From Pseudomonadota bacterium (GTDB taxonomy: Bacteria; Pseudomonadota; Gammaproteobacteria; Burkholderiales; JAJZQI01): a DNA stretch of 48,866 bases. The stretch covers positions 1 through 48,866 of the forward strand of contig JAJZTZ010000002.1 in the NCBI GenBank assembly GCA_021847305.1, written 5' to 3'. The position numbers were made by a program, and so were the translations under genes. A model generated the notes under the pieces. That model searched no databases. It saw only the letters and a list, made by a program, of their open reading frames with translations, and was not told where the DNA came from. Shown piece after piece: positions 2,440 through 47,123 of the stretch. Position 1 is the stretch's first letter. Each line of letters opens with the position of its first letter.

Positions 2440-3966
<1,527 letters not shown>

Positions 3967-4312: not shown

Positions 4313-4335
4313 GGTGACTGGGCCGGGGCAAGTGG

Positions 4336-20303: not shown

Positions 20304-20377
20304 GCGAAACTCGGCAACAGGTTGGCAAAGATGCTATTTTACGACAGAGTCAAACAACAACGATAGCCGCATTGTCG

Positions 20378-22153
20378 ATGACCACACCTGTTGACCCATT
20401 GTTTCAGGCCTTTCTTGAACAGGCCCGGCTGGCAGATGAATTTCTGGCGGCGGGCCGCTTTGCCGATGCGCGTCAGCTGATAGGCGATTTGCTGCTGGTG
20501 GATCCAGCTAATGCGGTTTTGCACCTGCAACTGGGCGCCTGCTGTCACGCTCTGCTTGATTATCCGGCTGCCCGCGCGGCACTGGAACGGGCCGTAGCGC
20601 TTGATCCACTGCTGGCCGACGGCTGGGCTGATCTCGGCGCCGTGCTGCAGACTCAGCGGGCCACGGCCGAGGCGGAGGCGGCATTTCGCCGGGCCCTGCA
20701 GCTTGATCCGGGTCACCCCCAGGCACTGCTTAATCTGGGACACCTGCTGCGCGACAAGGGGCGTCTGATGGAAGCACGGCAGTGCTACAGCGCTTTACTC
20801 GAACAGGGGCACTATCCTTTGCTGGCAATACGGCTCGCGACCCTGTTGCCGGCGGTTTATGCTTCAAGCGAAGAAGCGGAATCGTGTTTTGCTAACATTC
20901 ATAACAAACTGGCTGCTCTGGAGCACCAGTCTCTCTCCAGTTGCCTGGACCCCATTGCGTGCGGCGGTGGCAACGCCTTTTATCTGGCCTATCAGGGTAG
21001 GCCGGTTGCTGCTTATCAGCGGCGCATTGCCGCACTTTATCGACGCATGTACGATCCGCCGTATAAAGTTGCCCGCAAGCCGAGCAAGGAGCAGAAGCGC
21101 CGGGTAGCTTTTGTGTCTGCCTTTTTGCGTGAACATACCATCGGCCATTTGCTGGCAGGCGTGATCAGCCGTTTGCCCCCCGACCGTTTTGATGTGTTTG
21201 TACTGTTGCTGGGAGCGCCGCCGGATGATTTAAGCCAGCAGCTGGCTGCAGGAGTACAGCATTTCGAGCATCTTCCGGGCAGCGACGTCAATGCAATTGC
21301 CGGGCGCATTGCTGCTTTGCAGCTGGATGTGCTGGTGTATGCCGATATCGGTATGGAACCGGTCAGTTACTTCCTGGCATTCAACCGGCTTGCTCCGGTG
21401 CAGGCCGTACTGTGGGGGCACCCCGTTACGACGGGAATTGATACAGTTGATTATTATGTCAGCAGCGAGGCGCAGGAAACGCCGGGCAGCGAGGCGGAGT
21501 ACAGCGAGCAACTGGTGCGCCTGCCACGTTTGCTGAGCTGGTATGAGGCGCCGCCGCAGGTGCAACGCAGCGCTCAAGATTTTGGCTTGAATGCCGATAG
21601 TTTTCTCTATGTTTGCCCGCAGAGTCTGTTCAAGTTTCACCCTGACTTTGATGTGCTGCTGCGGCAGATATTGTTGCAGGATCCGTCCGGTTATCTCGTG
21701 TTGATGCAAGGTCATCAACCGGAGTGGACGGAGCAATTACAGGCGCGTTTCAGCAACACTCTGCCGGATGTGTTCGACAGGATCGTCTGGCTGCCCAGGC
21801 TGGCATATGCAGAGTACCTTGGTTTGCTGACGTGTGCCCATGTGATGCTCGACCCGCTGTATTTCGGCGGCGGAAAAACGACGCTCGATGCCTTGTCTGT
21901 GGGTTTGCCGGTAGTGACGTTACCCGGTAGGACAATGCGTAGCCGTGGGACCGTAGCGTGTTGTGCGCAGATCGGCTGGTTTGCCGGTGTGGCTCAGTCG
22001 CCGGATGACTACGTCAAACGGGCTGTCGCCCTGGCACGCGAATTTGGGGCTACCGAGAGGCAGGCGCTGGCCGAGTTGGCACGCGGTTTGCAAAAAGACC
22101 AGTTGGCTGTAAATGCGTTCGCCGATTGGTTGAGTGCCGCTGCAGTCGGCTAA
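20378..22153 (+). CDS. TPR-repeat protein fused to a SPINDLY/OGT-like (GT41) glycosyltransferase domain, about 591 aa
   Basis: The N-terminal ~150 aa are TPR repeats. The C-terminal blocks are typical of bacterial GT41: RVAFVSAFLREHTIGHLL, WGHPVTTGIDTVDYYVSS, YSEQLVRLP, FKFHPDFD, LDPLYFGGGKTTLDALSVGLPVVTLPG. The track ORF starts at TTG 20372; the ATG at 20378 is preferred. Confidence 0.85.
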   Translation: MTTPVDPLFQAFLEQARLADEFLAAGRFADARQLIGDLLLVDPANAVLHLQLGACCHALLDYPAARAALERAVALDPLLADGWADLGAVLQTQRATAEAEAAFRRALQLDPGHPQALLNLGHLLRDKGRLMEARQCYSALLEQGHYPLLAIRLATLLPAVYASSEEAESCFANIHNKLAALEHQSLSSCLDPIACGGGNAFYLAYQGRPVAAYQRRIAALYRRMYDPPYKVARKPSKEQKRRVAFVSAFLREHTIGHLLAGVISRLPPDRFDVFVLLLGAPPDDLSQQLAAGVQHFEHLPGSDVNAIAGRIAALQLDVLVYADIGMEPVSYFLAFNRLAPVQAVLWGHPVTTGIDTVDYYVSSEAQETPGSEAEYSEQLVRLPRLLSWYEAPPQVQRSAQDFGLNADSFLYVCPQSLFKFHPDFDVLLRQILLQDPSGYLVLMQGHQPEWTEQLQARFSNTLPDVFDRIVWLPRLAYAEYLGLLTCAHVMLDPLYFGGGKTTLDALSVGLPVVTLPGRTMRSRGTVACCAQIGWFAGVAQSPDDYVKRAVALAREFGATERQALAELARGLQKDQLAVNAFADWLSAAAVG

Positions 22154-22220: not shown

Positions 22221-23675
22221 ATGCCAGACGGAATGACTGACGGTAATTGGCTCGAGCAGGGCATTACTGCTCACGACAGGGGAGATTTTGCCGGTGCGGT
22301 TGCCGCCTACCGGCAATTTTTGTCATTGACTCCAGGAAACGTCGACGTCCTGACCTTGCTTGGCAACGCCTTGCAGCAATCCGGCGATTACCCCGGAGCC
22401 ATTGCAGTCTATGCCGATGCGCTTACATTGCAGCCGGAAAATGCTGTGCTGCAAAACAATACCGGCGTGGCTTTGCGGCAGCAGGGCTATCTGGACGATG
22501 CGCTGGATTGCTTTCTCAATGCCATCAACCTGGCACCCTCTTATGTTGATGCCTGGTTGAATATCGGTTCAGTGTTGAATATCCAGGGGCGGTTGGAGCA
22601 TGCTGCCACGGCTTTCAACCGCGTGCTTGATCTGGAGCCGCAAAATCCCAAAGTGCATGTTGGCCTGGGCAATACCTTGTCGCGCGCAGGTTTGTTTGAT
22701 GCTGCTCTCACTTCATACGAAACGGCTTTGCTGCTTGAGCCCGGTAATACCGATGCCCGCTGGGGGCGCGGTCTGGTTAATTTGAGTCTGGGGCAATGGG
22801 ACACTGCCTGGCAGGATTACGAACTGCGTTTCCGTGTGCAGACAGCCTATCCGTTTACCTATGACAAGCCGCGCTGGCGGGGTGAAGGCTTTGCCGGCAA
22901 AACTCTGCTGATACACGATGAAATCGGTTACGGCGATGTGTTCCAGTTTTCGCGCTATTTCCCTCGTGTGAAACAGCGCGGCGGGCGGGTTTTGCTGGAA
23001 GTGAAGCCAGGTCTCAAGCATCTGTTTGAGGGTTTTCCTGGAGTCGACGAAGTGCGCGAGCGCGGCACTCAGCCGCAGTCTGAAGCCGATTTTGATCTGG
23101 TTGTGCCACTGGAAAGCCTGCCCGGCATCTTTGCCACGCGTGTTGATACGATTCCACCTGTTGTGGCTCCTGCCGTGCCCGAGTCGTTGCAGGTGGTCTG
23201 GCAGGAAAGACTGGCTGCCCTGTCCGGCCGTAAAGTCGGCATCGTCTGGGCGGGCAATCCCAACAGCGCCTTCGATGCCGAGCGTTCCATGCAACTCACG
23301 GACTTGCTGCCGCTGCTGCGCGCCGCGAGTGATTGCAGTTTTGTCAGCTTGCAGGTGGGGGCGTCCAGCGAGCAGTTGCAGCATGCTGATCTAGCCATTC
23401 TTGATGCTTCGTCATGGCTGACTGATTTTTCCGAGACAGCCGCAGCCATCCAGTCGCTGGATCTGGTGATTACGGTGGAAACCTCCGTCGCGCATCTGGC
23501 CGGCATGCTTGGCAAGCCCACTTGGGTCATGCTGGCCAAAGTGCCGGCATGGCGCTGGGGGGTAGATGGCGACGGTACGCCCTGGTATCCGAGCATGAAA
23601 CTCTATCGCCAGACTGAAAGCGGCAATTGGAGCAGCGTGCTGGATGCTGTGGCCAAAGACCTCGGAGCTATCTGA
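22221..23675 (+). CDS. TPR-repeat protein fused to a GT9-like (heptosyltransferase-fold) glycosyltransferase domain, 484 aa
   Basis: About 200 aa of TPR repeats, then the GT9-like blocks [26 protein letters not shown], and [23 protein letters not shown]...WRW. It is a paralog of 33772..35463. Confidence 0.85.
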
Positions 23676-24445
23676 TGAAGGCTGTCATTCTGGCCGGCGG
23701 CCTGGGTACGCGCATCAGCGAGGAATCCCACCTGAAACCGAAGCCGATGATCGAAATCGGCGGCAAGCCGATTCTCTGGCACATCATGAAATCGTACTCG
23801 CACCACGGCATCAATGATTTCATCATTTGCCTGGGTTACAAGGGCTATGTCATCAAGGAATACTTCGCCAACTATTTCCTGCACATGTCCAATGTCACGT
23901 TCGATATGGCGAACAACAAGATGGAAATCCACCAGAATTATGCCGAACCCTGGCGCGTGACGCTGGTCGATACCGGCGCTGAGACGATGACCGGCGGGCG
24001 CCTCAAGCGGGTGCAAGAGTATCTGGGTGACGAAACGTTCTGTTTTACCTATGGCGATGGCGTTTCCGATGTGAATATTTCGGAGTTGGTGCGTTTTCAC
24101 GAAGCGCATGGCAAAAAAGCCACTGTGACGGCGATTCAGCCGCCGGGTCGATACGGCGCCTTGAAGCTGGATGATTCTGCTTCGGTAATGCACTTTCAGG
24201 AAAAGCCTGCCGGGGACGGAGCCTGGATCAACGGCGGTTTCTTCGTACTGCAGCCCTCTGTCATTGACTATATTGCCGGTGATCACTCCAGTTGGGAAGG
24301 GGAGGCACTTGAACGCATTGCGGCTGAAGGCGAATTGAAAGCTTATCAGCATCGCGGATTCTGGCAGGCGATGGATACGCTACGCGACAAAACCCAGTTG
24401 GAAGAACTTTGGGCAAGGACGAACCCGCCGTGGAAGGTCTGGTAG
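23675..24445 (+). CDS. rfbF: Glucose-1-phosphate cytidylyltransferase, 256 aa
   Basis: [59 protein letters not shown]... is near-canonical RfbF/DdhA. The ATG at 23675 overlaps the upstream TGA by 1 nt. Confidence 0.92.
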
Positions 24446-24448
24446 AGC

Positions 24449-25519
24449 ATGTTCGGCGGCGTATATTCTGGTAAACGGGTACTGATTACCGGGCATACCG
24501 GCTTCAAGGGTAGCTGGCTGGCGCTATGGCTTAAAGAGCTGGGCGCGACAGTGACAGGCCTGGCGCTCGAGCCGGAAGCCGCTCCCAGTCACTGGGAAGC
24601 GCTCGGACTCGGCATTGACAGTCACATTGTCGATATCCGTGATTACCCGGCAGTGCAGCGGGTGTTTGACGCAACACAGCCAGAAATTGTGTTTCATCTT
24701 GCCGCCCAGTCTCTTGTTCGCCGCTCCTATCGCAATCCGCTGGATACCTGGTCGGCTAATGTCATGGGTACTGCCTGCCTGCTGGAAGCCTGTCGCAATA
24801 CGCCAGCTGTACGCGCAGTTGTGGTCGTTACGACGGATAAGGTGTACGACAATCAGGAATGGCCCTGGGGCTATCGGGAGAACGATCGACTCGGTGGTCA
24901 TGATCCCTACAGCGCTTCCAAGGCAGCTAGCGAACTGGTGGCTGACAGCTACCGCAAGTCTTTTTTCTCCGCTGCTAGTGCGCCCTTGCTGGCAACGGCG
25001 CGGGCCGGTAATGTCATAGGCGGCGGAGACTGGTCAGAAGACCGACTTATTCCCGATCTGGTACGCGCTGTAAACCGGTCGGTAAATCTGGAAATCCGTT
25101 CGCCCAATGCCACGCGACCATGGCAGCATGTACTCGACTGCCTGTCCGGCTATTTGCAGCTCGGACAGGGGCTGTTACAGGGCAACCCGGATCTCGCAAC
25201 AGCATGGAATTTCGGTCCTGCAGCCAGTGACAACCGCACGGTCGCGCAGATACTGGCCATGCTGACGGAGCACTGGCCTGAAGTCCGCTGGTCGCTTGCT
25301 GCCAATGCTGATCTTCACGAAGCCAGCCAGCTTTATCTCGATAGCGCCAAGGCAAAGCAGGTGCTGCGCTGGCGGCCTGTGTGGGGACTTGAAGGGGCTG
25401 TCGCTGCGACGGCAGCATGGTATCGAGCTTATGCAGTGGGTCAGATAGAGTCGCGCCAGCAGCTGGCCGACTATTTTCGCGCGGCACAGGGTGCGGGTGT
25501 GGAATGGGCCAAAACTTGA
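24449..25519 (+). CDS. rfbG: CDP-glucose 4,6-dehydratase, 356 aa
   Basis: KRVLITGHTGFKGSWLALWL..LGA.VTG (Rossmann), the catalytic YSASKA (YxxxK), and a length and C-terminus typical of RfbG/DdhB. Directly follows rfbF. Confidence 0.92.
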   Translation: MFGGVYSGKRVLITGHTGFKGSWLALWLKELGATVTGLALEPEAAPSHWEALGLGIDSHIVDIRDYPAVQRVFDATQPEIVFHLAAQSLVRRSYRNPLDTWSANVMGTACLLEACRNTPAVRAVVVVTTDKVYDNQEWPWGYRENDRLGGHDPYSASKAASELVADSYRKSFFSAASAPLLATARAGNVIGGGDWSEDRLIPDLVRAVNRSVNLEIRSPNATRPWQHVLDCLSGYLQLGQGLLQGNPDLATAWNFGPAASDNRTVAQILAMLTEHWPEVRWSLAANADLHEASQLYLDSAKAKQVLRWRPVWGLEGAVAATAAWYRAYAVGQIESRQQLADYFRAAQGAGVEWAKT

Positions 25520-26067
25520 AAATTCATGCTACCGCGATTGAAGGCGTGGTTTTAGTCGATACCCGGGTGTTAGAAGATGAGCGAGGTGCTTTTTCGCGTT
25601 TGTATTGCGAACGAGAGCTGGCATCTGTACTGAGGCAACGTCATATAGTGCAGGTCAACCGGTCGCTTACGCGAAAGTCCGGCGCTATCCGTGGCATGCA
25701 TTTCCAGCATGCGCCTCATGCTGAAATGAAGCTGATCCGCTGTCTCCGCGGGCGAGTGTGGGATGTCGCTGTGGATATTCGGGCAGGATCCCCGACATTT
25801 CTGCACTGGCATGCCGAGGAACTGACGCCTAATAACGGCAGAATGATGGTAGTGCCGGAGGGGTGCGCGCATGGTTTTCAGGTGCTGGAAGACGATAGCG
25901 AACTGCTTTATCTGCATACGGCGTTTTATGAGCCGAGCGCAGAAGCCGGCTTGCTTTTCGATGATCCCCGTCTGGCGATCAAATGGCCCTTGCCGGTAAC
26001 TGAACTTTCCCGGCGTGATCGTGAACATGCTCCCATTGCCGGTGATTTTGCGGGAATTCGCTTATGA
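25504..26067 (+). CDS. RmlC-like cupin sugar-nucleotide 3,5- (or 5-/3-) epimerase, 187 aa
   Basis: Start placed at the ATG at 25504 (MGQNLKIHATAIEGVV...), overlapping rfbG by 16 nt. RmlC-type blocks: DERG.F, RGMHFQ..PHAE.KLIRC..G.VWDVAVDIR, VPEG.AHGF..L.D....LY....Y.P..E.G...DDP.L.I.WP. Confidence 0.85.
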   Translation: MGQNLKIHATAIEGVVLVDTRVLEDERGAFSRLYCERELASVLRQRHIVQVNRSLTRKSGAIRGMHFQHAPHAEMKLIRCLRGRVWDVAVDIRAGSPTFLHWHAEELTPNNGRMMVVPEGCAHGFQVLEDDSELLYLHTAFYEPSAEAGLLFDDPRLAIKWPLPVTELSRRDREHAPIAGDFAGIRL

Positions 26068-27287
26068 AATGCCGTCACTGCGGTCAGCCGCTGGAAAATG
26101 TCTTTCTCGATCTGGGTTTTGCCCCGCCATCGAATGCCTATTTGAATGAAGCTGATCTGACTGCACCGGAACTCTATTTCCCCCTCAAACTGTATGTGTG
26201 CGACCATTGCTGGCTGGTGCAGACGATCGATTACAGTCGTGCTGACGAACTGTTCAGTCATGACTACGCCTATTTTTCCTCTGTTTCAAAAACCTGGCTT
26301 GATCATGCCGAGCGCTACAGTGTGAAGATGATCGACCGGTTCGGTCTGGGGCCGCACAGTCATGTGGTCGAAATCGCCTCCAACGACGGTTATCTGCTGA
26401 AAAATTTCGTCGCCCGGAATATTCCTTGCCTGGGTATAGAACCTACTGCCAGCACCGCACAAGCTGCGCGTGCGCTGGGAATCCCCGTGCTGCAAGAGTT
26501 TTTCGGCGAGTCTTTGGCTCATCGTCTGGCCGGCGAAGGCAGGCAAGCTGATCTGCTGGCGGGTAACAACGTGTTTGCCCATGTACCCGATATCAATGAC
26601 TTTACCCGCGGCCTGAAGGTTCTCCTAAAGCCGGGTGGGGTGGTCACGCTCGAATTTCCGCATTTGATGCGCCTGCTGGAGTTCGGTCAATTTGATACGG
26701 TTTATCACGAGCATTTTTCCTACCTGTCTCTGTATACCGTTTCACACATTTTTGCCGAAGCGGGTTTGCGCGTTTGGCTGGTCGAAGAGCTGCCGACACA
26801 TGGCGGCAGTCTGCGAGTGTATGGCTGCCATGACGAGGATGCTCGGGCTGAAGATGAATCGGTGGCGCGCATTCTGGCTGAAGAAGAACACCGCAGAATG
26901 CGCGATTTGGCTTTGTATCTTGCCTTTCAGGCGACGGCAAACCGCATCAAGGACGATTTGCTGACGTTTCTGCTTGAGCAGAAACGCGCAGGGAAACGGG
27001 TCATGGCCTATGGTGCAGCAGCTAAGGGCAACACGCTGCTCAACTATGCCGGTGTGAAACCGGATCTGCTGGCTGGCGTGTATGACGCCGCTCCGTCGAA
27101 GCAGGGCAAGTTCATGCCCGGCAGCCATATCCCCATTTTGGATCCGCAACGCATTATTGAAGACAGGCCTGATTACCTGCTCATTCTGCCCTGGAATATT
27201 GCCGCAGAAGTACGGACACAGCAGGCAGTTATTACTTCATGGGGTGGACATTTCGCGGTGGCGGTACCGTCATTGGAGGTGAGTTGA
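26064..27287 (+). CDS. SAM-dependent NDP-hexose C-methyltransferase (TylC3/TcaB9-like), 407 aa
   Basis: N-terminal four-Cys motif (CRHCG...CDHC), a class I SAM fold (VVEIASNDGYLL), and the family-typical EHFSYLSL...GGSLRVY and C-terminal YGAAAKGNTLLNY...PGSHIPI blocks. ATGA overlap with the epimerase gene. Confidence 0.8.
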   Translation: MKCRHCGQPLENVFLDLGFAPPSNAYLNEADLTAPELYFPLKLYVCDHCWLVQTIDYSRADELFSHDYAYFSSVSKTWLDHAERYSVKMIDRFGLGPHSHVVEIASNDGYLLKNFVARNIPCLGIEPTASTAQAARALGIPVLQEFFGESLAHRLAGEGRQADLLAGNNVFAHVPDINDFTRGLKVLLKPGGVVTLEFPHLMRLLEFGQFDTVYHEHFSYLSLYTVSHIFAEAGLRVWLVEELPTHGGSLRVYGCHDEDARAEDESVARILAEEEHRRMRDLALYLAFQATANRIKDDLLTFLLEQKRAGKRVMAYGAAAKGNTLLNYAGVKPDLLAGVYDAAPSKQGKFMPGSHIPILDPQRIIEDRPDYLLILPWNIAAEVRTQQAVITSWGGHFAVAVPSLEVS

Positions 27288-28156
27288 TGCGGATTGCCGT
27301 GACCGGAGCCAACGGATTTATCGGTAAACACGTGGTGGCGCAGTTGCTGGAGCGTGGATGTGAGGTTGTTGCTTTGTTGCGGGAACCCGCCAGGCGGCCC
27401 GAAACATGGTCTGGACGGGTAGAGATTGTGCCATTTGATCTCGGCGAAGCGAGTGTCGGGATGTATGACCGGCTGCAGCGCCCTGATGTGCTTATTCACT
27501 TGGCTTGGGGTGGTTTGCCCAACTACCGTTCGTTGCAGCATTTTGAAGTTGAGTTGCCCCGCCAGTACCAATTCCTATCGACGCTTGTGCGCGAGGGGCT
27601 GCCGGCGATGCTGGTTGCCGGGACTTGTTTCGAGTACGGCATGCAAGCCGGTATGCTGCGTCCGTCCATGCCGTCCATGCCGACTAACCCCTATGGCTAC
27701 GCTAAAGATGCATTGCGGCGACAATTGCAAATGCTGCAAATCGAGCAAAGTTTTAATCTGATTTGGGGACGAGTATTTTACCTGTATGGTGAAGGGCAAT
27801 CGCCCACATCACTTTATCCCAAACTGGAAGCCGCTGTCGCAGCGGGTGCCAGCGTATTCGATATGTCCGGCGGTGAACAGCTAAGAGACTATCTGCCTGT
27901 CGCCGAGGTTGCCAGGCGAATTGTCGTGATGGCTCTGTCCGGCCGAAATCTGGGAGTGCAGAATATCTGTTCGGGCCAGCCTATTTCCGTGCGCCGATTG
28001 GTTGAGACATGGATCGAGGCAAACAATTGGACTATCCGGCTCAATCTGGGTGCATTTCCGTACCCGGACTACGAACCCATGGCATTCTGGGGCGAGGATT
28101 CATTTTCGCTGCTGCGGCTTGAACAGGCGAAAGTGGCCGCTGAAGGGGTTGCATGA
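27287..28156 (+). CDS. NAD(P)-dependent SDR epimerase/reductase (probable sugar 4-ketoreductase), 289 aa
   Basis: MRIAVTGANGFIGKHVV Rossmann motif and the YGYAK catalytic YxxxK. The ATG at 27287 overlaps the upstream TGA by 1 nt. Confidence 0.85.
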   Translation: MRIAVTGANGFIGKHVVAQLLERGCEVVALLREPARRPETWSGRVEIVPFDLGEASVGMYDRLQRPDVLIHLAWGGLPNYRSLQHFEVELPRQYQFLSTLVREGLPAMLVAGTCFEYGMQAGMLRPSMPSMPTNPYGYAKDALRRQLQMLQIEQSFNLIWGRVFYLYGEGQSPTSLYPKLEAAVAAGASVFDMSGGEQLRDYLPVAEVARRIVVMALSGRNLGVQNICSGQPISVRRLVETWIEANNWTIRLNLGAFPYPDYEPMAFWGEDSFSLLRLEQAKVAAEGVA

Positions 28157-28812
28157 GCGAAGTAAAATTGCGCGCAGGTTCGGTGAGTCAGTTGGCTGAT
28201 TATGTGATTCGTCAGCTCGATCATCTGTTTCCGGTTGAGCCGAATGGTGCTGAACTGTTGCAATTGCATGTGCCCGGAGCTCTGCAGCGTATCCGGCCGA
28301 TTCTTTCAGCTTGTCGGGCGTTTCGGCAGGACGAGTTCGATCATTTTAACTCCATGCAATATGCCACTTTCGTGTACTTGCTTGCCAACGAATTGTGGGT
28401 ACACGGTCTGGACCAGGAACAGTTTGCTCTGTGCGAGAGACTGTTCCTGCTTAATAAGGCGTTGGCCGGGCTGGATATGTATTACAAAATTGACATGCCT
28501 GAAGTTTTTTTTCTCTCGCATGGCAGCGGTTCGGTACTGGCCAATACTGTCTACGGCAACAAGCTCGTACTCTTCCACAACGTGACGGTCGGCCGCTATG
28601 GCGCAAGTCGGCCGACCATCGGGCAGCGGGTTATTTTATTTCCCAATTCAATTGTTGCCGGTAATTCCGTTATCGGGGATGGGGCGGTAATTTCCGCTGG
28701 AGTCTCTGTTATCAACCAGACGGTACCGGATGAATGTCTGGTATTTGCCGGTCCTCAGGGATTGGTGTTCAAACCCAAGAAAAAAAACTACGAGTCAGAG
28801 TTTTTCCGATGA
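28153..28812 (+). CDS. Left-handed beta-helix (hexapeptide-repeat) acyl/acetyltransferase, serine-acetyltransferase-like, 219 aa
   Basis: Helical N-terminal half, then hexapeptide repeats (VTVGRYG...IGQRVILFPNSIVAGNSVIGDGAVISAGVSVINQTVPDECLVFAG). ATGA overlap with the reductase gene. Confidence 0.8.
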   Translation: MSEVKLRAGSVSQLADYVIRQLDHLFPVEPNGAELLQLHVPGALQRIRPILSACRAFRQDEFDHFNSMQYATFVYLLANELWVHGLDQEQFALCERLFLLNKALAGLDMYYKIDMPEVFFLSHGSGSVLANTVYGNKLVLFHNVTVGRYGASRPTIGQRVILFPNSIVAGNSVIGDGAVISAGVSVINQTVPDECLVFAGPQGLVFKPKKKNYESEFFR

Positions 28813-28854: not shown

Positions 28855-31800
28855 ATGAAAAGTAAAAGTCCTCAATTAACCGTAGGTTTGCCTGTTTTTA
28901 ACGGCGAGAAGTTTGTCGGCAATGCAATCGAGTGCATGCTGGAACAAACTTATTCGGACTTTGTTTTCATTATTTCCGACAACGCTTCCACCGATGCAAC
29001 AGAAGAAATTTGTCGTCAATACGAGAAGTTCGACAAGCGCATCAAGTACTACCGCAATGAACAAAATCTCGGGGCGGCGAAGAATTTCGAGCTTCTCTAT
29101 CAAAAGGTCGAGACGCCTTTCTGGACGCCAATCTCACATGATGATTATTTTTCTCTCAATTTTCTCGAGTCCTGTCTCGGCAAACTGATCGACAATCCGG
29201 ATGCTGTTTTGGCCGCCCCGGCGCAGATTGCCGCAATTAATGCAAATGGTTTTATCAAGCGGATTGAGCGGAATTTCAACACTGAAGGCATGGGGCTCTC
29301 GGAAAGGCTGTGCCATTTACTCGACCGCATTATGTGGGTGTCGTTCTACGGTGTCAGCCGTACCTCCGTGTTTGGCGAGGTCTGGTCGAAAATCGGACCC
29401 TACAAGACGCGTTTTGGCGCCGACGTGATATTTCTGGCCGGTATGCTGCTGAAAGGGCAGATTGTTTCGGCTGATGGGGCGACATTTTTTTACCGTGAAG
29501 CGGATGCGGAAAAGCCCGCGGCCGTTTACGCACAGGATTTACTGCCAGGTCAGGCTGTGTCATCGATGCCGTACACAGGACTGCTGGAGTCGATTCTTGA
29601 AGTGCTGTTCCTGTTTGCCGACGTGGCCGTGGAGCAAAGAGCGATAATCAGCAATGACATCCTTCAAACCGTATTGAAACAGCCTGGGTGGGCTTATCAA
29701 CTGGAGCGGGAACAACGTAATCAGGAAGGTGACACAGCTGCCCCTGCTTCTGCGGCGGCAGAACAGATTACCTCAGCTCCCGTCGCAGTTGTTCCGGCTT
29801 CGACCAATCAATTGCCGCATTCAACTGCTGCTGCCGTAACAGAGAAACCCGGTTTTACGGCGAATTTCGGCATCAATGTGGTCGGGCATGTCTCTGGCAA
29901 TCTTGGTTTGGGCGTGTCGGCTCGAAGTGTCATCAAGTCTTTACTGGAAAATGGTATTCCACTGGCAATTTTTGATGTCGACCCAGGTCTAGGGCGAGGG
30001 CGCAAAGATCTGACTTTTGCCCAGTATCATGTAAAGTCGCTGGAAGAATTGGTTTACCCGATAACACTGTTCATGATGCCCCCAACCATTGGCTGGCTGA
30101 AAGAGGCAATACCCGAACTTTTTCCCGCTGACAAGCTTTTGATTGCATACAGTATGTGGGAATTGCCTGTCCTGCCGCCTCAATGGATGGAGTCGCTGGA
30201 GACATTTGATGTGCTGGTGGCCGGCTCAGAGTTTATTCGGCATGCGTTTGAATTCAATTTGTCCAAAGTTCAGACAATTGTAACCAAGCACCCGCTTTAT
30301 TTGCCCGATAACATTGTGGGGGATCGGGCCCGATTCAACCTGCCTGCTGATAAAACCATTTTTGTCACCGCTTTTGAGCCGAATAGCGATCCGATGAGAA
30401 AAAACCCTCGTGGAACTCTGCGCGCCTTTCTTTCAGCATTTCCGGATGATGATTCTGTTTGTCTAGTCGTTAAAGTCAATAATGCCTATGCGGATGGAAT
30501 TCTGCATTCATCGGTGGTCGAATTGCAGAGTATCGCAAGTGATGACAAGCGGATTGTCTTTATCACAGCGAGCATGCCGTATGTCGACGTGCTGAGACTT
30601 TATGCCTCCTGCGATGTTTTTGTCTCACTTCATCGGGCGGAGGGATTGGGCCTTGGCTTAATGGAGGCCATGGCGTTGGGTAAGCCGGTTATAGCAACTG
30701 GCTGGTCAGGCAATATGTCCTTCATGGATCATACCTGTGCCTGTCTGGTGCCCTATGTGCTTATTCCCGTCAACGGCAGTATTCCCGCATACACAAGTGC
30801 GGAGCTTGGGCGTGAGGCAAAGTGGGCAGAGCCTTCGCTCGCGCATGCCTCAGCCTGGATGCGGCAATTAGCGGCTTCCCAGGAGCTGCGCAGTGAAATA
30901 GGGCAGGCTGCAGCTCGTGCTATGGCTAGGCATCACAAGGAGGCAAGCGCAGCCGAGTTTGTACGCGAGCTGCACTCGATCTGGCAGCATCAACAATTCC
31001 TGCCCCGTTCTGTTGAAATTGACGAAGGCGCAGGTGCCATTGCTGGTCTAAATGCGGTCGACCAAGCATATCAGATATGGCGCAATAAGCATTCAATGCA
31101 GGAAATCGATGCCCAGATTCTGGCCGAGCGTATGGTGACCCAATGGCAATCCAAACCGGTCTTCCATTTTGTGGTTCTGGTGGTGCAGGGGCAGGAGCAG
31201 GAACTGGCGGATGCCATTGATAATTTGGCTGGTCAGATGTATGGCAGCTGGCATTTGACCGTGATTGCTGATTTCCCCTCGCCGGACAGCGCCTTCGGTC
31301 AGGCTGAACACCTCCAGTGGATTCGGATGCAGCCAGATTGGCTGCTATCCGACGTGCTGAATGTTGTAGTTGATCGCAGAAAAGGCGACTGGTTTGCCGT
31401 CACCGCTCCGGGGTTTGTCCTGGAGCCGCAAACCTTGCTGGTGCTGGCCAACTACATCAATGCCTATCCCGACTGGAAGCTGATTTATACAGATGAAGAC
31501 CGGTTAAACAAAAACGGCCGCCATGTGTTGGCCCGTTTCAAGCCGGAGTTCAACCTGGAGTGGCTGCGTGCGTCCAATTTTCTGGGTGACCTGGTTTTCT
31601 GCAGTGGGGAGGCAATTGAGGCCGTAGGCGGGTTCGTCAATTTGCCGGGCGCCTATCAGTATGACCTGACGCTTCGACTCTATGAGATGTTCGGTGAAAG
31701 CGTTATGGGGCATGTGGATGACGTGCTGGTATCTTTCTCTGAACAATTCTGGTCTTTGGTCGATGGCGAGGCGGAAGAGGAAGCCGTGCGTCAGCATTTG

Positions 31801-33768
31801 CAACGATTGAATGTGTCGGCGGATGTGTCGGCGGGTTATCAGCCGGGTACGCGCAGGGTGATGTACCAGTGGGATACCCAGCCCGCTGTTTCGATCATTG
31901 TTCCCAACAAGGATAGCCTCGAATATTTGCAACCTTGCCTGCAGAGCCTGTTCGAGAAGACCGCTTACCCGGATTTCGAAGTTCTGGTGGTGGACAACGG
32001 CAGTACCGACCCGGATGTGCTTGAGTTTTATGAGCAGATGCTGGCGCAGGAGCCGCGACTGCGGCTGTTAAAGTATCCGCAGCCGTTCAACTTCTCGGTG
32101 ATGAACAATCTGGCTGCACGGGAAGCCCGCGGCGACTATCTGGTGCTCCTCAACAATGATACCCAGATTGTTCAAGCGGACTGGCTGACTCGTCTGATGT
32201 CCTATGGGCAGCGGCCGGATGTCGGCATCGTCGGTGCCCGCCTGGTCTATCCGGAAACAGGCATACTACAGCATGCAGGGGTTGTTCTGGGCATGCAGGG
32301 CATTGCAGACCACATATTCAATGGCCAGCTCAAAATGGACGAGCCGGGGTATCTTGGCCGTGCGCATGTCGATCAGGAATATTCGGCGGTGACAGCCGCC
32401 TGCTTGCTGGTGCGCAAATCCCTGTACGATCAGGTGGGGGGGCTGGATGAAGAAGCCTTCAAGGTTTCCTATAACGATGTAGACCTGTGCCTGAAGATCA
32501 GGCAGTTGAATTACAAAATCATCTGGACGCCTTATGCGACTGTGGTCCATCACGGGTCGGTGTCGCAGAAGGCTTCAAATGTCGATCTGATGAAGCGGGC
32601 ACTGAATGCCCAGCGCTTTGAGGCGGAGCAGCATGCCATGATGAGAAAATGGCTGCCGCAACTTGCCAATGATCCCGCATACAACCGCCATCTAAGCCTG
32701 ATGACGCCGGATTGTCGCGCGGAAAGCAGCATCGTCATTGACTGGGATACCCGCTTCCATGATCGCCGCCGGATTCTCGGGGTGCCATTGACCGGAGGGT
32801 CGGGCGAGTACCGGGTAATCAGCCCGTTTAGGGCGATCAGTCGTGCCGGTTTGGCTCAGACAGCGATTGTGCAGGCGGCCAAAATGTTTGAGACGCGGGT
32901 CATACTGCCGGTTGAGCTTGAACGCGCGGCTCCGGATGTTCTGGTGTTGCAGTCCGCTGTAGATGACAGGCAGCTGCAAGCCTTGCAGGAATACAAGGAA
33001 TTCAATCCCTCGGTGAAACGCATTTTCACGCTGGATGATCTGGTTACTCAGATTCCGCAGAAAAGCGCCTCGTATCGACACTCCTACCGCGATGCAAAAC
33101 CGCGTTTGCGGAAAGCATTGGCCCTGTGTGACAGGGCCATAGTGAGTACCGAGCCGCTGGCGGAACTGTGCCGTTCCATGATCGACGATGTCAGGGTGCT
33201 GCCCAACAGGCTGGAGGCAGCTATCTGGGGTGGGCTGACTTCACAGCGTGGTCATGGCAAGAAACCTCGAGTAGGCTGGGCAGGCGCGCAGCAGCATGCC
33301 GGTGATCTGGCCTGGATAACTGATGTGGTTAGAGAGACGGCGGGCGAAGTGGAGTGGGTGTTTCTGGGTATGTGCCCGGATGAAATCCGGCCGTTTGTCC
33401 ATGAGGTCCATGATTTCGTACTGTCTTTCTACGATTACCCGGCCAAATTGGCCAGCCTGAATCTTGATCTGGCGATTGCACCGCTGGAAATGCTCGCTTT
33501 CAATGAGGCGAAGAGCAACTTGCGTCTGCTCGAGTATGGGGCAATGGGGTGGCCGGTCATTTGTACCGATATTTACCCCTATCAGACCAATGCCGCACCG
33601 GTATGCCGTCTGCCGAACGATGTGGCTGCATGGGTCAATGCAATTCGCGAACGGATCTATGATCTTGATGCCGCCTACAGGGAAGGCGATAGGCTGAAGG
33701 CCTGGGTGGCGCAGCATTACATTCTTGAGAATAAGCTGGATGACTGGTTTGACGCCCTGGCCCGATGA
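28855..33768 (+). CDS. Giant multi-module glycosyltransferase, 1637 aa (GT2, GT4-like GT-B, degenerate GT2-like, GT2, C-terminal GT-B-like)
   Basis: Module 1 (about 28870-29500): GLPVFNGEKFV...IISDNASTD...SHDDY. Ala/Pro/Ser/Thr linker (about 29720-29860). Module 2 (about 29866-30960): GT4 EX7E motif, RAEGLGLGLMEAMALGKPVIAT. Module 3 (about 31160-31800): FHFVVLVV...LIYTDEDRL. Module 4 (about 31885-32560): VSIIVPNKD...VVDNGSTD...LLNNDT...GIVGARLVYP. Module 5 (about 32760-33765): PRVGWAGAQQH...LDLAIAPL...NEAKSNLRLLEYGAMGWPVICT. Confidence 0.85.
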   Translation: MKSKSPQLTVGLPVFNGEKFVGNAIECMLEQTYSDFVFIISDNASTDATEEICRQYEKFDKRIKYYRNEQNLGAAKNFELLYQKVETPFWTPISHDDYFSLNFLESCLGKLIDNPDAVLAAPAQIAAINANGFIKRIERNFNTEGMGLSERLCHLLDRIMWVSFYGVSRTSVFGEVWSKIGPYKTRFGADVIFLAGMLLKGQIVSADGATFFYREADAEKPAAVYAQDLLPGQAVSSMPYTGLLESILEVLFLFADVAVEQRAIISNDILQTVLKQPGWAYQLEREQRNQEGDTAAPASAAAEQITSAPVAVVPASTNQLPHSTAAAVTEKPGFTANFGINVVGHVSGNLGLGVSARSVIKSLLENGIPLAIFDVDPGLGRGRKDLTFAQYHVKSLEELVYPITLFMMPPTIGWLKEAIPELFPADKLLIAYSMWELPVLPPQWMESLETFDVLVAGSEFIRHAFEFNLSKVQTIVTKHPLYLPDNIVGDRARFNLPADKTIFVTAFEPNSDPMRKNPRGTLRAFLSAFPDDDSVCLVVKVNNAYADGILHSSVVELQSIASDDKRIVFITASMPYVDVLRLYASCDVFVSLHRAEGLGLGLMEAMALGKPVIATGWSGNMSFMDHTCACLVPYVLIPVNGSIPAYTSAELGREAKWAEPSLAHASAWMRQLAASQELRSEIGQAAARAMARHHKEASAAEFVRELHSIWQHQQFLPRSVEIDEGAGAIAGLNAVDQAYQIWRNKHSMQEIDAQILAERMVTQWQSKPVFHFVVLVVQGQEQELADAIDNLAGQMYGSWHLTVIADFPSPDSAFGQAEHLQWIRMQPDWLLSDVLNVVVDRRKGDWFAVTAPGFVLEPQTLLVLANYINAYPDWKLIYTDEDRLNKNGRHVLARFKPEFNLEWLRASNFLGDLVFCSGEAIEAVGGFVNLPGAYQYDLTLRLYEMFGESVMGHVDDVLVSFSEQFWSLVDGEAEEEAVRQHLQRLNVSADVSAGYQPGTRRVMYQWDTQPAVSIIVPNKDSLEYLQPCLQSLFEKTAYPDFEVLVVDNGSTDPDVLEFYEQMLAQEPRLRLLKYPQPFNFSVMNNLAAREARGDYLVLLNNDTQIVQADWLTRLMSYGQRPDVGIVGARLVYPETGILQHAGVVLGMQGIADHIFNGQLKMDEPGYLGRAHVDQEYSAVTAACLLVRKSLYDQVGGLDEEAFKVSYNDVDLCLKIRQLNYKIIWTPYATVVHHGSVSQKASNVDLMKRALNAQRFEAEQHAMMRKWLPQLANDPAYNRHLSLMTPDCRAESSIVIDWDTRFHDRRRILGVPLTGGSGEYRVISPFRAISRAGLAQTAIVQAAKMFETRVILPVELERAAPDVLVLQSAVDDRQLQALQEYKEFNPSVKRIFTLDDLVTQIPQKSASYRHSYRDAKPRLRKALALCDRAIVSTEPLAELCRSMIDDVRVLPNRLEAAIWGGLTSQRGHGKKPRVGWAGAQQHAGDLAWITDVVRETAGEVEWVFLGMCPDEIRPFVHEVHDFVLSFYDYPAKLASLNLDLAIAPLEMLAFNEAKSNLRLLEYGAMGWPVICTDIYPYQTNAAPVCRLPNDVAAWVNAIRERIYDLDAAYREGDRLKAWVAQHYILENKLDDWFDALAR

Positions 33769-35596: not shown

Positions 35597-36451
35597 ATGG
35601 CACTCGTCGTCAATACTAATATTGCTTCGCTGATTGCTCAGAACAACCTGAATAATTCGCAAAGCGCACTGCAAGTTTCCCTGCAACGTCTGTCTTCCGG
35701 TCTGCGTGTAAACAGCGCCAAGGATGACGCAGCAGGTCTGGCAATTTCCCAGGCATTCACCGCACAAATTCGTGGTAACAACCAGGCGATCCGTAACGCT
35801 AACGACGGTATCTCTCTGGGTCAAACCGCTGAAGGCGCGCTGGGTCAGATTGCTAACAACGTACAACGTATTCGTGAAATTGCCGTACAGGCAGCCAACG
35901 GTACCATCAGCGATACCAACCGTTCTCAGCTGCAGAACGAGGTGAACCAGCTGACCCAGGAAATTTCCCGTATCGTTCAGACCACCAACTTCAACGGCAC
36001 CAACCTGCTGTCCGGTGCAAGCACCCTGACCTTCCAGGTGGGCGCTTCCGGTTCCAGCAACAACCAGGTAAGCATTACCACTACCAACCTGGCACAAAGC
36101 GGTTCCGCTGGTCTGTATTCCTACGCTACCAGCCTGACTGCAACCGGTACTGTGGATATCACCACCTCCGGCAATGCTTCTGCTGCGATTGCCAATCTGG
36201 ATGCCGATATTTCCCAGATTTCCACCGTACGCTCCACCTTCGGTGCGGTTCAGAACCGTTTCGAGGCTGTGGTTGCCAACCTGCAGAACTACGTGCAGAA
36301 CCTGACTGCAGCAAACAGCCGTATCATTGACGCTGACTTTGCTTCGGAAACGGCTAACCTGACGCGTAACCAGATTCTGCAGCAAGCTGGTACCGCGATC
36401 CTGTCTCAGGCAAATGCTCTGCCGCAGACTGCACTGACCCTGTTGCGTTAA
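35597..36451 (+). CDS. fliC: Flagellin, 284 aa
   Basis: ATG at 35597 preceded by AAGGAG. Canonical N-terminus [18 protein letters not shown]...[20 protein letters not shown] and C-terminus ...[34 protein letters not shown]. The central region is short. Confidence 0.96.
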
Positions 36452-44723: not shown

Positions 44724-47123
44724 GTGGCAGCTTCAAAATTGCAAATCGGCCGGTTTCATATTGTAAAAGTGCTGGGGGAGGGGACCCAGGGCAAGGTCTA
44801 TCTTGCCGATGACTCAAAACTGGGCCGCCAGGTTGCCATCAAAACGGTAAAGCTCGATCCTTCGCAAGAGCGTGAAAAGCAGATAAAAATACTGCTCGAT
44901 GAGGCTCGTATTGTCAGCCGGATGCAACATGCCAATATCGTCACCCTGTATGACGCCGGTGAAGATCAGAATGAACCCTACCTGGTTTTTGAATATGTTC
45001 CAGGCATGACTTTGTCGGAACGGATGCAGTGGGACGGTCTGGTGGAAAAAACACAGGCCGTAGAGCTGACCTTGCAGATCCTCGCCGGTGTTGCCTTTGC
45101 ACACAGCAAGGGGGTGGTGCACCGTGATCTGAAGCCTTCCAATATCATTCTGGATAGCAATAATGTTCCCCGGATCATGGATTTCGGCATTGCCCGTCAG
45201 GTGGAAAAGGGCGGTGGCAAAGTCTCGCTGATGGGGACGCCGCTTTATCTGGCGCCGGAAACAGTGGGTGAACGGATTGTCAGCCCGCGATCCGACGTGT
45301 TTTCTGTCGGGATGATTCTGTTTGAGATGCTGACGGGCCGCAATCCGGTGCGGGCGCCGACTCTGAAAGAGGTGCTGGAGCGGATCACCCGTCATGAGAT
45401 CCCCGCGCCATCGAGCCTTAATCCGGCGATTGATGAACGCCTCGACAGCATTGTGCTGCGTGCCTTGGCACGCAACGCTGACGATCGCTACCAGTCGGCC
45501 AGCCAGATGGCAGAGGCCCTGGAGGCGTACTTGCGGCCGGAGACGAATCAGGCGCAGTCGACCACAGGGCAAAGTACGCTCGACTTTCTGCTGCGGCGCA
45601 TGCGGCACAAAAGCGACTTTCCGGCGATTTCGCAATCCATTTCCGCGATCAATCAGATTGTTTCGTCCGACTCGGACAGTGTGGCCGATCTGTCCAACGT
45701 CATCCTGCGTGACTTTTCGCTCACCAACAAACTGCTCAAGCTGGTCAACACTGCCTTCTATGGCCAGTTCGGCGGCAGTATCAGCACCATTTCCCGCGCT
45801 ATCGTCATTCTCGGTTTCGACACCGTGCGCAATATCGCTGTAAGCCTGATGCTGTTCGAGCATTTGCAGAACAAGTCGCAGGCCCAGCAACTCAAGGATC
45901 AGGTCATTGCCACATTCTTCACTGGTCTGATCGGTCGTGAGCTGGCCATCCGCACGAAAATGCGCGATGTCGAAGAAGCGCTGATTTGTGCCATGTTTCA
46001 TAACCTCGGCAAGCTCCTGGCGACCTTTTATTTCCATGAAGAAGTCACCGAAATCGAGAAGCTTGTGGCTTCCGGAACGGAGGAAAACCGCGCAGTGCTT
46101 GAGGTGCTGGGTACCGGCTATCAGGAACTGGGAGTGGGGGTGGCGCGTACCTGGCATTTTCCGGACAAGATCATCACCAGTATGCGCGAAGTAACCGATG
46201 AGAAGGTCAAGGCGCCGCAGACCGACGCGGAAAAGCTGCGGGTCATCGCCGGTTTGTCCAAGTCGCTGGTCGGCGTTGCCGGCTACACCGACCCGCAGCA
46301 AAAGCATTTGCATGTGCAGGCTCTGGTCGGTCGTTATGGTGGGGCGCTTGGGGTAACCGACCGGACGCTGACTTCGGTGGTGGAAGAGTCCATGAACGAA
46401 TTCCGTCGCGAAGCCAGCGTGCTTGAGGTGAATGCTCAGGAGAGCATCTTCCTGGGCAAGGTAACCAAGTGGAGCGGCACGCGCCAGTCCATGGAGAGTG
46501 CGGCGGGGGGTAAAACGGCCGACACCTTGTCGGATACGCTGAAAAATACTGTGCTGGTGAGCGAGAGCGGTTTGGCCGATGCGACGGTCACGACCAACGG
46601 CATTCCGGACAACGCCCAGTCCGTGCTTGCGGCAGGCATTCAGGATATCACCAGTACTCTGGTTGATGACTATTCGCTGAATGACCTGTTGCGCATGATT
46701 CTTGAGACGATGTACCGTGGGATGAACTTTTCCCGTGTTGTCTTGTGCATCCGCGATGCCAAGCAGAACAGCATGAACGCGCGTTTCGGTTTTGGCAAAG
46801 ATATCGGCGCAATCATTCCGAAGTTCCGCTTTCCCCTCAGTGGTGCGCCCAATGTATTCCAGATTGCTCTGACGCAGGCGCTGGACATCCACATTGAAGA
46901 CATCAATGCGGCGAATATCCGCGATCGCATCCCGCAGTGGTATCGGGACGCGATCGACGCCAATTCATTCATCCTGTTTCCGTTGGTCATCGACAAAAAG
47001 CCGGTTGGAATGCTGTATGCGGATCGTCAGGGTAAAGAGGGTATGAGTATTCCGCAAAAAGAGTTGAGTTTGCTCAAAACTCTGCGCAATCAGGCTGTGC
47101 TGGCAATCAAGCAGAAAATGTAA
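44724..47123 (+). CDS. Hanks-type Ser/Thr protein kinase fused to HDOD and GAF domains, 799 aa
   Basis: GTG start. Kinase: GEGTQGKVY, VAIK, HRDLKPSNI, DFGIAR, GTPLYLAPE. HDOD-like: FPAISQSISAINQIVSSDSDSVADLSNVILRDFSLTNKLLKLVNTAFYG...ISRAIVILGFDTVRNIA...HNLGKL. C-terminal GAF-like: LNDLLRMILETMYRGMNFSRVVLCI...FPLVIDKKPVGMLYADR. No TM segment. Confidence 0.88.
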   Translation: MAASKLQIGRFHIVKVLGEGTQGKVYLADDSKLGRQVAIKTVKLDPSQEREKQIKILLDEARIVSRMQHANIVTLYDAGEDQNEPYLVFEYVPGMTLSERMQWDGLVEKTQAVELTLQILAGVAFAHSKGVVHRDLKPSNIILDSNNVPRIMDFGIARQVEKGGGKVSLMGTPLYLAPETVGERIVSPRSDVFSVGMILFEMLTGRNPVRAPTLKEVLERITRHEIPAPSSLNPAIDERLDSIVLRALARNADDRYQSASQMAEALEAYLRPETNQAQSTTGQSTLDFLLRRMRHKSDFPAISQSISAINQIVSSDSDSVADLSNVILRDFSLTNKLLKLVNTAFYGQFGGSISTISRAIVILGFDTVRNIAVSLMLFEHLQNKSQAQQLKDQVIATFFTGLIGRELAIRTKMRDVEEALICAMFHNLGKLLATFYFHEEVTEIEKLVASGTEENRAVLEVLGTGYQELGVGVARTWHFPDKIITSMREVTDEKVKAPQTDAEKLRVIAGLSKSLVGVAGYTDPQQKHLHVQALVGRYGGALGVTDRTLTSVVEESMNEFRREASVLEVNAQESIFLGKVTKWSGTRQSMESAAGGKTADTLSDTLKNTVLVSESGLADATVTTNGIPDNAQSVLAAGIQDITSTLVDDYSLNDLLRMILETMYRGMNFSRVVLCIRDAKQNSMNARFGFGKDIGAIIPKFRFPLSGAPNVFQIALTQALDIHIEDINAANIRDRIPQWYRDAIDANSFILFPLVIDKKPVGMLYADRQGKEGMSIPQKELSLLKTLRNQAVLAIKQKM

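Follow-up and report, generated by a model that had tools for sequence, protein, structure and literature searches.

A predicted five-module glycosyltransferase with an FgtA-like core encoded beside flagellin in a burkholderialean contig

The sugars on flagellin bear on motility, on surface properties, and on recognition by immune systems or by plants; in most bacteria, the enzymes that attach them carry no more specific name than 'glycosyltransferase'. In Pseudomonas aeruginosa PAO1, FgtA (PA1091) is a glycosyltransferase fused to a CD0244-like phosphotransferase; the b-type flagellin glycan consists of one deoxyhexose with phospho-N,N-dimethylthreonine attached, and the pa1091 mutant makes non-glycosylated flagellin (PMC11833859). 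In P. syringae, Fgt1 adds the first rhamnose to serine and Fgt2 extends the chain, the delta-fgt1 mutant being unglycosylated and the delta-fgt2 mutant partly glycosylated. FlmG, in turn, joins a GT-B catalytic domain to an N-terminal tetratricopeptide repeat (TPR) domain that binds flagellin, and transfers nonulosonic acids. Here we analyze a gene for a 1637-amino-acid (aa) protein located upstream of the flagellin gene fliC in a 48,866-nucleotide (nt) stretch of DNA, hereafter the window (contig JAJZTZ010000002.1 of assembly GCA_021847305.1; Pseudomonadota, Burkholderiales). A preliminary description of the window had read this gene as one uninterrupted open reading frame (ORF) stringing together five glycosyltransferase-like modules of mixed inverting and retaining chemistry, without a membrane anchor and with one degenerate module. 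The comparisons reported below suggest that its product is probably a soluble enzyme of the cytoplasm, equipped with several active sites, that would build an O-linked glycan on flagellin before export.

Module architecture and the FgtA-type core

The structure of the protein was predicted with AlphaFold in two halves from homologue alignments (residues 1-738, pLDDT 77.7; residues 709-1637, pLDDT 82, pTM 0.78), and the models were searched against the PDB with Foldseek. In these models the order of elements is GT-A, disordered linker, GT-B (GT4), GT-A, GT-A, and GT-B, giving five glycosyltransferase folds that are designated M1 to M5 (Table 1). The five modules proposed from the sequence are hence recovered as folds, including modules 3 and 5, for which the absence of such a fold had been named as the result that would overturn the proposal, and all of the motifs listed for them are found, in the stated order. 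Pfam families score above their gathering thresholds in three regions (GT2 at residues 10-123, Glycos_transf_1/Glyco_trans_1_4 at 568-633, and GT2 at 1010-1233), with PF00535 reaching 150.2 bits against a cut-off of 23.3, and Pfam is silent over residues ~740-1000 and 1290-1637, which correspond to M3 and M5.

The C-terminal half of the protein relates it to FgtA, a link absent from the preliminary description. Residues 773-1631 align by BLASTP with residues 851-1678 of FgtA at 36% identity over 873 aa (E 3e-115), the FgtA sequence having been taken from the supplement of PMC11833859, and this identity across M3-M4-M5 places the window protein, by sequence, in the FgtA core family, with GT2 and GT4 modules replacing the phosphotransferase. 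The family is large: the core search returned >4353 clusters (90% identity) at E<=1e-100, and a search with M5 only returned 803 clusters (50% identity) at E<=1e-30; in nearly all of the best 150 of these 803 matches, M5 forms the very C-terminal end of a protein of 1150-2960 aa. The lengths of 360 full-core members range from 763 to 2962 aa, with a median of 1459, and 121 of them have at least 1600 aa. The earlier view of a five-module fusion next to flagellin as something unusual is therefore not sustained, such fusions being typical of the family; taken alone, the gene is an ordinary member of a very large, little-studied group.

Variation among the homologues falls on the N-terminal side. 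Residues 333-1637 exist alone as proteins of 1330-1349 aa, one homologue has a GT4 module instead of M1, and others add methyltransferase, RgpF, GT92, DUF563, TagB-like, or Maf-like modules; PF04464 is found in other relatives of the window protein, and a scan of one genome per species located the M3-M4-M5 block in ORFs of 904-2061 aa. These sequence comparisons identify M3-M4-M5 as a fixed family core with interchangeable N-terminal add-ons. In the P. fluorescens lineage, fusions of RgpF with the core are frequent and lie away from flagellar genes; they have 1149-1166 aa, or 1447 aa in P. simiae, and examples are found in Pseudomonas sp. PB120 (locus L011), P. simiae (L017), and P. fuscovaginae (L088), where the gene is flanked by a peptidase S24 gene and a GGDEF-EAL gene.

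Within the core, M5 is the near-invariant part, with 60 invariant columns across 13 taxa. Its model shows two Rossmann-like halves and matches GlgM and BshA as a full GT-B fold (~400 aligned columns, TMt 0.61-0.63), and its sequence gave no PDB match below E = 0.2. Pfam signals stay below threshold (PF13692 in 12 of 13 members, PF13524 in 10 of 13), the window M5 scoring 18.5 bits for PF13692 against a cut-off of 27, which leaves the domain outside the curated GT-B families. The set of DD, H, K, and E residues of M5 is intact in 343 of 360 family members and the four aspartates of M4 in 268, in a census that was drawn from similarity-search matches, one search being seeded with M5, and is to that extent a biased sample; in the subset obtained without M5 seeding, the M5 set is intact in 80 of 84 members and the M4 aspartates in 45. 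The state of the motifs in PAO1 FgtA points in the same direction. There, the M4 motifs have been lost (VDN to VAS, NNDT to GLAV, QHAG to REAG, NDVD to ADVD) and M3 reads YSDHV, and M5 is the only module with all of its motifs intact, so that the count of one intact glycosyltransferase module matches the single sugar on PAO1 flagellin.

M5 is also the module that tracks flagellar genes. On species-representative loci, fliC, fliD, or fliS lies within 10 kb of 10 of 17 M5 loci and of none of 62 loci with M3 and M4 only (Fisher p = 1.3e-8), a result that is unchanged at a relaxed E-value. The core adjoins fliC in Methylophaga, Azoarcus, beta-proteobacterium L13, Andreprevotia, Dyella, Lonsdalea, and four Pseudomonas species, and three of these loci also have the same cytidine diphosphate (CDP)-sugar cassette as the window. 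The complementary 7 of 17 core-bearing loci, together with the P. fuscovaginae gene, lie away from flagellar genes, which shows that the family is not exclusively flagellar and, with the name 'O-antigen biosynthesis protein' given to some homologues by the Joint Genome Institute (JGI), could indicate that the true target is a surface protein, lipopolysaccharide, or exopolysaccharide and that adjacency to fliC is incidental. For the window protein we regard this as very improbable, given that the arrangement of sugar cassette, glycosyltransferase, and fliC is kept across classes of Proteobacteria, that the protein is homologous to an enzyme required for flagellin glycosylation, and that neither a membrane anchor in the protein nor export genes at the locus are found.

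Flagellar co-occurrence, the motif state of FgtA, and conservation together suggest that M5 is a flagellin-directed domain, and we infer that it is the priming transferase, the module that adds the first sugar. The possibility that M5 is instead a TagF/CD0244-like phosphotransferase using the CDP-sugar was rejected, because no PF04464 match is found in M5 or its relatives and because, in FgtA, the phosphotransferase occupies the N-terminus and is not part of the core that aligns. A free-standing M5 was not in evidence either, the one short match that was checked (P0200, 447 aa) being a partial sequence cut off by the end of a 1.7-kb contig. We further advance, tentatively and as something short of an even prospect, a wider generalization: that M5 represents an uncurated GT-B family, the true flagellin Ser/Thr O-glycosyltransferase of FgtA-type enzymes; that the number of intact modules predicts the number of sugars; and that M3 is a conserved pseudo-glycosyltransferase positioning the growing glycan. 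Several points weigh against this assignment of M5, besides the biased census and the non-flagellar loci already described. The authors of the FgtA study assign its glycosyltransferase activity to the GT2 family (PMC11833859); the degenerate-looking M4 of FgtA could retain activity, and M5, for its part, could bind flagellin or have a regulatory role. Moreover, the sequence used for FgtA was machine-read from a PDF, with single-letter errors possible, although multi-residue motif replacements are unlikely to be errors of this kind.

M3 and M4 form a tandem GT-A unit whose best Foldseek matches are K4CP (E 4e-20, 546-661 aligned columns) and PmHS2. M4 is a canonical GT2 module, with Pfam families above the gathering score, the VDNGSTD and LNNDT motifs, and a GT-A fold, and its motif residues are invariant across the relatives compared. 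M3 retains the GT-A fold, and a sequence profile ties it to SpsA, RmlT, TarS, and K4CP, but it lacks the metal-binding DXD of GT2/GT-A enzymes: canonical dual-GT2 relatives read ADD...DHDD...YSDED at positions where the window M3 reads ADF...TAPGF...YTDED. In the flagellar clade the M3 DXD site has shrunk to xAGD/E, with at most one acidic residue; there is none in the window protein, in an orthologue 83% identical to it, in Methylophaga, or in L13, nor in 72 of the 360 family members overall, and a full DXD occurs in 0 of 360. The degeneracy of this module had been recognized in the preliminary description, which pointed to YTDEDRL as its mark; the module is indeed degenerate, but YTDED is its conserved part, and the degenerate DXD lies 28 residues upstream. 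M3 also shows the highest ratio of nonsynonymous to synonymous substitution rates (dN/dS) of the five modules, in a codon-by-codon comparison with the 83% orthologue (M1 0.044, M2 0.054, M3 0.111, M4 0.038, M5 0.047), where dS is saturated and the values are accordingly rough, a further reason for caution; on these figures it evolves 2-3x faster than the others. The loss of DXD and the highest dN/dS, combined with the retention of YTDED, K896, D937, and H953, argue for a non-catalytic but constrained role, and M3 is probably, from its sequence features, a scaffold or acceptor-binding module, which makes the earlier suggestion of a non-catalytic scaffold a plausible one.

The structural likeness to K4CP and PmHS2 raises the alternative that M3 and M4 constitute a bifunctional polymerase of that type, producing a repeating polysaccharide on flagellin or on a lipid carrier, the more so as pairs of M3 and M4 in which both GT2 sites are canonical occur widely, often as tandem repeats in polysaccharide-type loci. 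We consider it improbable, since the DXD position of M3 is devoid of acidic residues in the window protein, constraint on M3 is relaxed, and the island contains no transporter, Wzx/Wzy, lipid-carrier priming transferase, or export genes. Separately, four loci from Oscillospiraceae, Lachnospiraceae, and Clostridiales (L042, L047, L057, L080) carry M3+M4-type dual-GT2 units in 2-4 tandem repeats, with no M5 and no flagellar gene near, in what looks like a polysaccharide-type use.

The reading frame and the N-terminal modules

The ORF runs for 1637 codons from its ATG with zero internal stops, and its product is found unchanged on eight contigs of separate assemblies, the exact protein being seen solely in metagenome assemblies. 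The 83% orthologue (1639 aa), known from two GenBank (GCA) assemblies and a single metagenome run, has the same five modules, order, and neighbours, and a homologue of 1644 aa in Acidithiobacillus thiooxidans has the five modules in identical order, with the same sugar cassette on one side and flagellin on the other. Among named organisms, the closest relatives come from Acidithiobacillus, Igneacidithiobacillus, and Methylophaga, with identities of 42-51%; a literature search for flagellin glycosylation in Acidithiobacillus gave nothing. A cluster of Igneacidithiobacillus homologues includes forms of 907 and 992 aa besides one of 1806 aa, indicative of splits or mis-calls in some assemblies. 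The notion that the window ORF is itself an artefact, in which separate genes were joined by assembly or sequencing error, is nevertheless scarcely credible. Identical copies on eight contigs, two diverged orthologues of full length (with hundreds of relatives comparably long), and purifying selection that acts on all five modules (dN/dS 0.04-0.11) and spans every module junction exclude an assembly fusion, and the single uninterrupted ORF of the preliminary description stands. In the Igneacidithiobacillus cluster (P0010, which also includes Acidithiobacillus sp. S30A2), the 1806-aa gene combines a methyltransferase, a GT4 module, and the core; one of the 907- and 992-aa products is NCBI RefSeq WP_248886177.1, and the short forms reflect either truncated calls or a gene that is split in certain strains.

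Both N-terminal modules carry the features of their families. M1 combines a GT2 Pfam match above the gathering score with the DNASTD and SHDD motifs and a GT-A fold, for which Foldseek retrieved 6p61 (TMt 0.84) and SpsA. Its C-terminal end is modelled as a helical bundle that includes an amphipathic helix at residues 241-259, and this same segment (TGLLESILEVLFLFADVAV) gives the top 19-residue Kyte-Doolittle window of the protein, at a borderline 1.73. With that score, and with three acidic residues in a stretch modelled as a helix within M1, it was rejected as a membrane anchor, in agreement with the earlier observation that the protein has none. M2 scores 56.1 bits for PF13692 and 44.2 bits for PF00534, both exceeding their cut-offs, and has a two-Rossmann fold and an EX7E motif whose glutamates, E596 and E604, are nearly invariant among relatives; its structural matches are 3oy2 (PBCV B736L, TMt 0.70), BshA, and MshA (TMt 0.63-0.70 for the three), together with PimB'. 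GT2 enzymes are inverting and GT4 enzymes retaining, and the presence of both kinds of module in one protein agrees with the mixed chemistry proposed for it. The linker between M1 and M2 contains 28 A/P/S/T among the 56 residues of positions 285-340, falls below pLDDT 50 at residues 293-333, and shares 27% aa identity with that of the 83% orthologue (dN/dS 0.39). An origin of the modules by internal duplication was considered and rejected: they are not recent mutual copies, and the best inter-module BLAST match, between M1 and M4, covers 43 residues at E 8e-4.

The glycosylation island and a proposed pathway

Upstream of the five-module gene lies a cassette of six genes, in the order glucose-1-phosphate cytidylyltransferase, CDP-glucose 4,6-dehydratase, RmlC-like 3,5-epimerase, TylC3-type C-methyltransferase, SDR reductase, and hexapeptide acetyltransferase, the first two of which score above the NCBIfam equivalog cut-offs (TIGR02623, 469.7 bits; TIGR02622, 471.2 bits). 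We take its product to be CDP-6-deoxy-3-C-methyl-L-hexose (vinelose-like), possibly O-acetylated, which would be an unusual flagellin sugar. The gene sits in a flagellin glycosylation island, and the single dedicated nucleotide-sugar pathway that had been noted next to it is supported and is CDP-based. The same cassette is found beside a homologous glycosyltransferase and fliC in A. thiooxidans, Methylophaga, beta-proteobacterium L13, and Pseudomonas chaetocerotis. An M1-like GT2 module is present in 4 of 5 lineages bearing the cassette and in 1 of 14 lineages without it (p = 0.006), an association counted on very few lineages and weakened by that; this co-occurrence makes M1 a candidate for transfer of the locus-specific sugar.

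The fliC gene starts 1.8 kb downstream of the five-module gene, with only one TPR gene between them, and is followed by flaG, fliD, and fliS and then, on the other strand, by HAD and mfd genes. For flagellin, the mechanical ORF call opens with TTG 35516; translation probably begins at ATG 35597, the start that is called in other assemblies.

Table 1. Features of the five-module gene and its island in the window (folds as predicted by the structure models).
Feature	Residues	Position (nt)	Strand	Basis or remark
Five-module glycosyltransferase gene	1637 aa	28855..33768	+	ATG start, stop codon included
M1, GT-A fold, family GT2	1-290	28855..29724	+	PF00535 at 10-123; Foldseek
M1 motif DNASTD	42-47	28978-28995	+	
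M1 motif SHDD	94-97	29134-29145	+	
Linker, Ala/Pro/Ser/Thr-rich, predicted disordered	291-335	29725..29859	+	Composition, pLDDT
M2, complete GT-B fold, GT4-type (retaining)	336-715	29860..30999	+	PF13692, PF00534, Foldseek
M2 EX7E motif EGLGLGLME	596-604	30640-30666	+	
Helical connector	716-765	31000..31149	+	Helices at model residues 16-55; dN/dS 0.17
M3, GT2-derived degenerate GT-A fold	766-1005	31150..31869	+	Profile match, structure model
M3 DXD position, reads TAPGF	850-854	31402-31416	+	
M3 motif YTDED	878-882	31486-31500	+	YTDEDRL at 878-884
M4, canonical GT-A/GT2	1006-1290	31870..32724	+	PF00535, PF13641, PF10111
M4 motif VDNGSTD	1046-1052	31990-32010	+	
M4 motif LNNDT	1099-1103	32149-32163	+	
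M4 motif QHAG	1139-1142			
M4 motif YNDVD	1206-1210			
M5, divergent GT-B domain, no curated family	1291-1637	32725..33765	+	Model, Foldseek
M5 motif GSGEYR	1315-1320			
M5 motif LDDL	1393-1396			
M5 motif RVGWAG	1472-1477			
M5 motif HAGD	1481-1484			
M5 motif NEAKSNLRLLEYG	1550-1562			
TPR + GT41/HMW1C-like gene		20372-22153	+	
TPR gene, GT9/heptosyltransferase-like C-terminal domain		22221-23675	+	Paralogue of 33772 gene
CDP-sugar cassette, six genes		23627..28812	+	Profile matches
TPR gene, GT9/heptosyltransferase-like C-terminal domain, FlmG-like architecture	563 aa	33772..35463	+	
Flagellin fliC	284 aa from ATG	35597..36451	+	Ser/Thr-rich centre; presumed acceptor

In the proposed pathway, M5 would recognise flagellin and place the first sugar on Ser/Thr of its central region. 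M4 (inverting GT2), M2 (retaining GT4), and M1 (inverting GT2) would then add one more sugar each, to give about a tetrasaccharide, with M1 as the best candidate to transfer the locus-encoded CDP-6-deoxy-3-C-methyl-hexose, and M3, itself non-catalytic, would support M4 structurally or hold the acceptor for it. Assembly of several sugars in sequence, as put forward in the preliminary description, is plausible on this view. The priming module, the order of additions, the donor of each module, and the length of the glycan are the parts of this scheme that we infer.

The three TPR genes of the island bear directly on the first step, and their presence counts against priming by the five-module enzyme. 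One is GT41-like and two are GT9-like, all with FlmG-type architecture, and any of them could prime instead, in the manner of FlmG, leaving the five-module enzyme solely to elongate and M5 to act as an elongating transferase or a docking domain. Apart from the resemblance to FlmG, whose TPR domain binds flagellin, this alternative draws on the position of the 33772 gene, which begins 3 nt past the stop codon of the five-module gene and suggests translational coupling, on the conservation, at the locus of the 83% orthologue, of both this gene and the paralogous one at 22221, and on the fact that GT41 enzymes are protein glycosyltransferases employed by flagellin glycosylation islands of Enterobacteriaceae. 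The C-terminal domains of the 22221 and 33772 genes share 35% identity and a heptosyltransferase-like motif, and a sequence search with the C-terminal domain of the TPR neighbour against the PDB gave no match. We nevertheless judge priming by a TPR protein rather unlikely, because the core enzyme stands next to fliC without any TPR-glycosyltransferase in A. thiooxidans, Methylophaga, several Pseudomonas species, and PAO1, so that in A. thiooxidans, Methylophaga, and PAO1 the core enzyme must prime; because loss of FgtA alone abolishes glycosylation in PAO1 (PMC11833859); and because the TPR-GT41 gene is present only as fragments at the closest orthologous locus (L001 2898-3288).

Should M5 be the priming domain, several consequences would follow. 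FgtA-type enzymes are currently filed under GT2 owing to their M4 module, and their catalysis would be reassigned to a new GT-B family, the domain of which would provide a useful genomic marker of flagellin O-glycosylation. If the module count holds, PAO1 FgtA, with one intact glycosyltransferase module, would correspond to one sugar, and the window protein, with four, to a tetrasaccharide. The fixed core with its swappable add-ons itself allows flagellin glycosylation islands to be read simply, by counting intact modules and matching the add-ons to the sugar cassettes.

The remaining genes of the window are housekeeping and signalling genes. A signalling cluster at 8270-14349 (-) encodes an EAL response regulator, a hybrid PAS histidine kinase with a receiver domain, and a second PAS histidine kinase, and a gene at 44724-47123 (+) encodes a Ser/Thr kinase fused to HDOD and GAF domains; neither has an evident tie to the glycosylation genes. 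The prfB gene (release factor 2, ~4336-5440, -) contains a programmed +1 frameshift site, CTT TGA C, at ~5362, with a 26-codon leader, and is followed by lysS (2440-3966, -); an ORF overlapping its 3' end (3978-4547, -) has no family match and is probably spurious.

Comparison with described systems

The multi-module O-antigen glycosyltransferases of ABC-transporter-dependent pathways, for example the Klebsiella O-polysaccharide enzymes (PMC11231755), resemble the window protein in fusing several GT-A and GT-B modules in varied arrangements. They work on a lipid-linked acceptor at the membrane and with export machinery, in contrast with the window locus, which has neither and belongs to a flagellar filament operon.

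The tandem GT-A pair of K4CP (Escherichia coli K4) and PmHS2 (Pasteurella) matches M3-M4, with a profile match of E 2e-29 for K4CP. Both GT-A domains of these enzymes are catalytic and carry DXD, whereas the window M3 does not, and they have no C-terminal GT-B domain and make a polysaccharide, not a protein-linked glycan. With one competent GT-A domain missing from the window pair, the likeness is one of fold, at 14-15% identity and a TM-score of 0.2-0.3 over the pair.

FlmG (Caulobacter and Brevundimonas) and Maf share with the proposed enzyme a role in the cytoplasmic O-glycosylation of flagellin. In FlmG, however, the TPR domain is fused to the GT-B domain, whereas the window ORF has no TPR match and the TPR domains reside in three neighbouring genes. 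The MptE-like domain of Maf (PF01973) is likewise absent from the window ORF and is seen only in a distant relative (P0020).

The Fgt1 and Fgt2 proteins of P. syringae, compared by description only, are large glycosyltransferases encoded just upstream of a flagellin of ~282 aa, close in length to the 284 aa of the window flagellin, and no P. syringae protein is among the homologue matches listed. Priming and extension are divided there between two proteins, in contrast with the window protein, in which they would be fused.

FgtA of PAO1 (Q9I4N8) differs from the window protein in four respects. On the one hand, its N-terminus is a CD0244/FtaD-like phosphotransferase in place of GT2 and GT4 modules, and the PAO1 glycan contains a deoxyhexose and phospho-dimethylthreonine, whereas the window locus encodes a pathway for a CDP-6-deoxy-C-methyl-hexose; in keeping with this, the window ORF has no PF04464 match and its neighbours are CDP-hexose genes, not CDP-threonine genes like PA1088-PA1090. 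On the other hand, the GT2 motifs of M4 are degenerate in FgtA and canonical in the window protein, and the M3 of FgtA keeps AGD and has lost ED, whereas that of the window protein has lost the last acidic residue of DXD. Both are large multifunctional fusions in flagellin glycosylation islands, and the C-terminal ~830 residues of FgtA align with the M3-M4-M5 core of the window protein, with the motifs of M5 common to the two.

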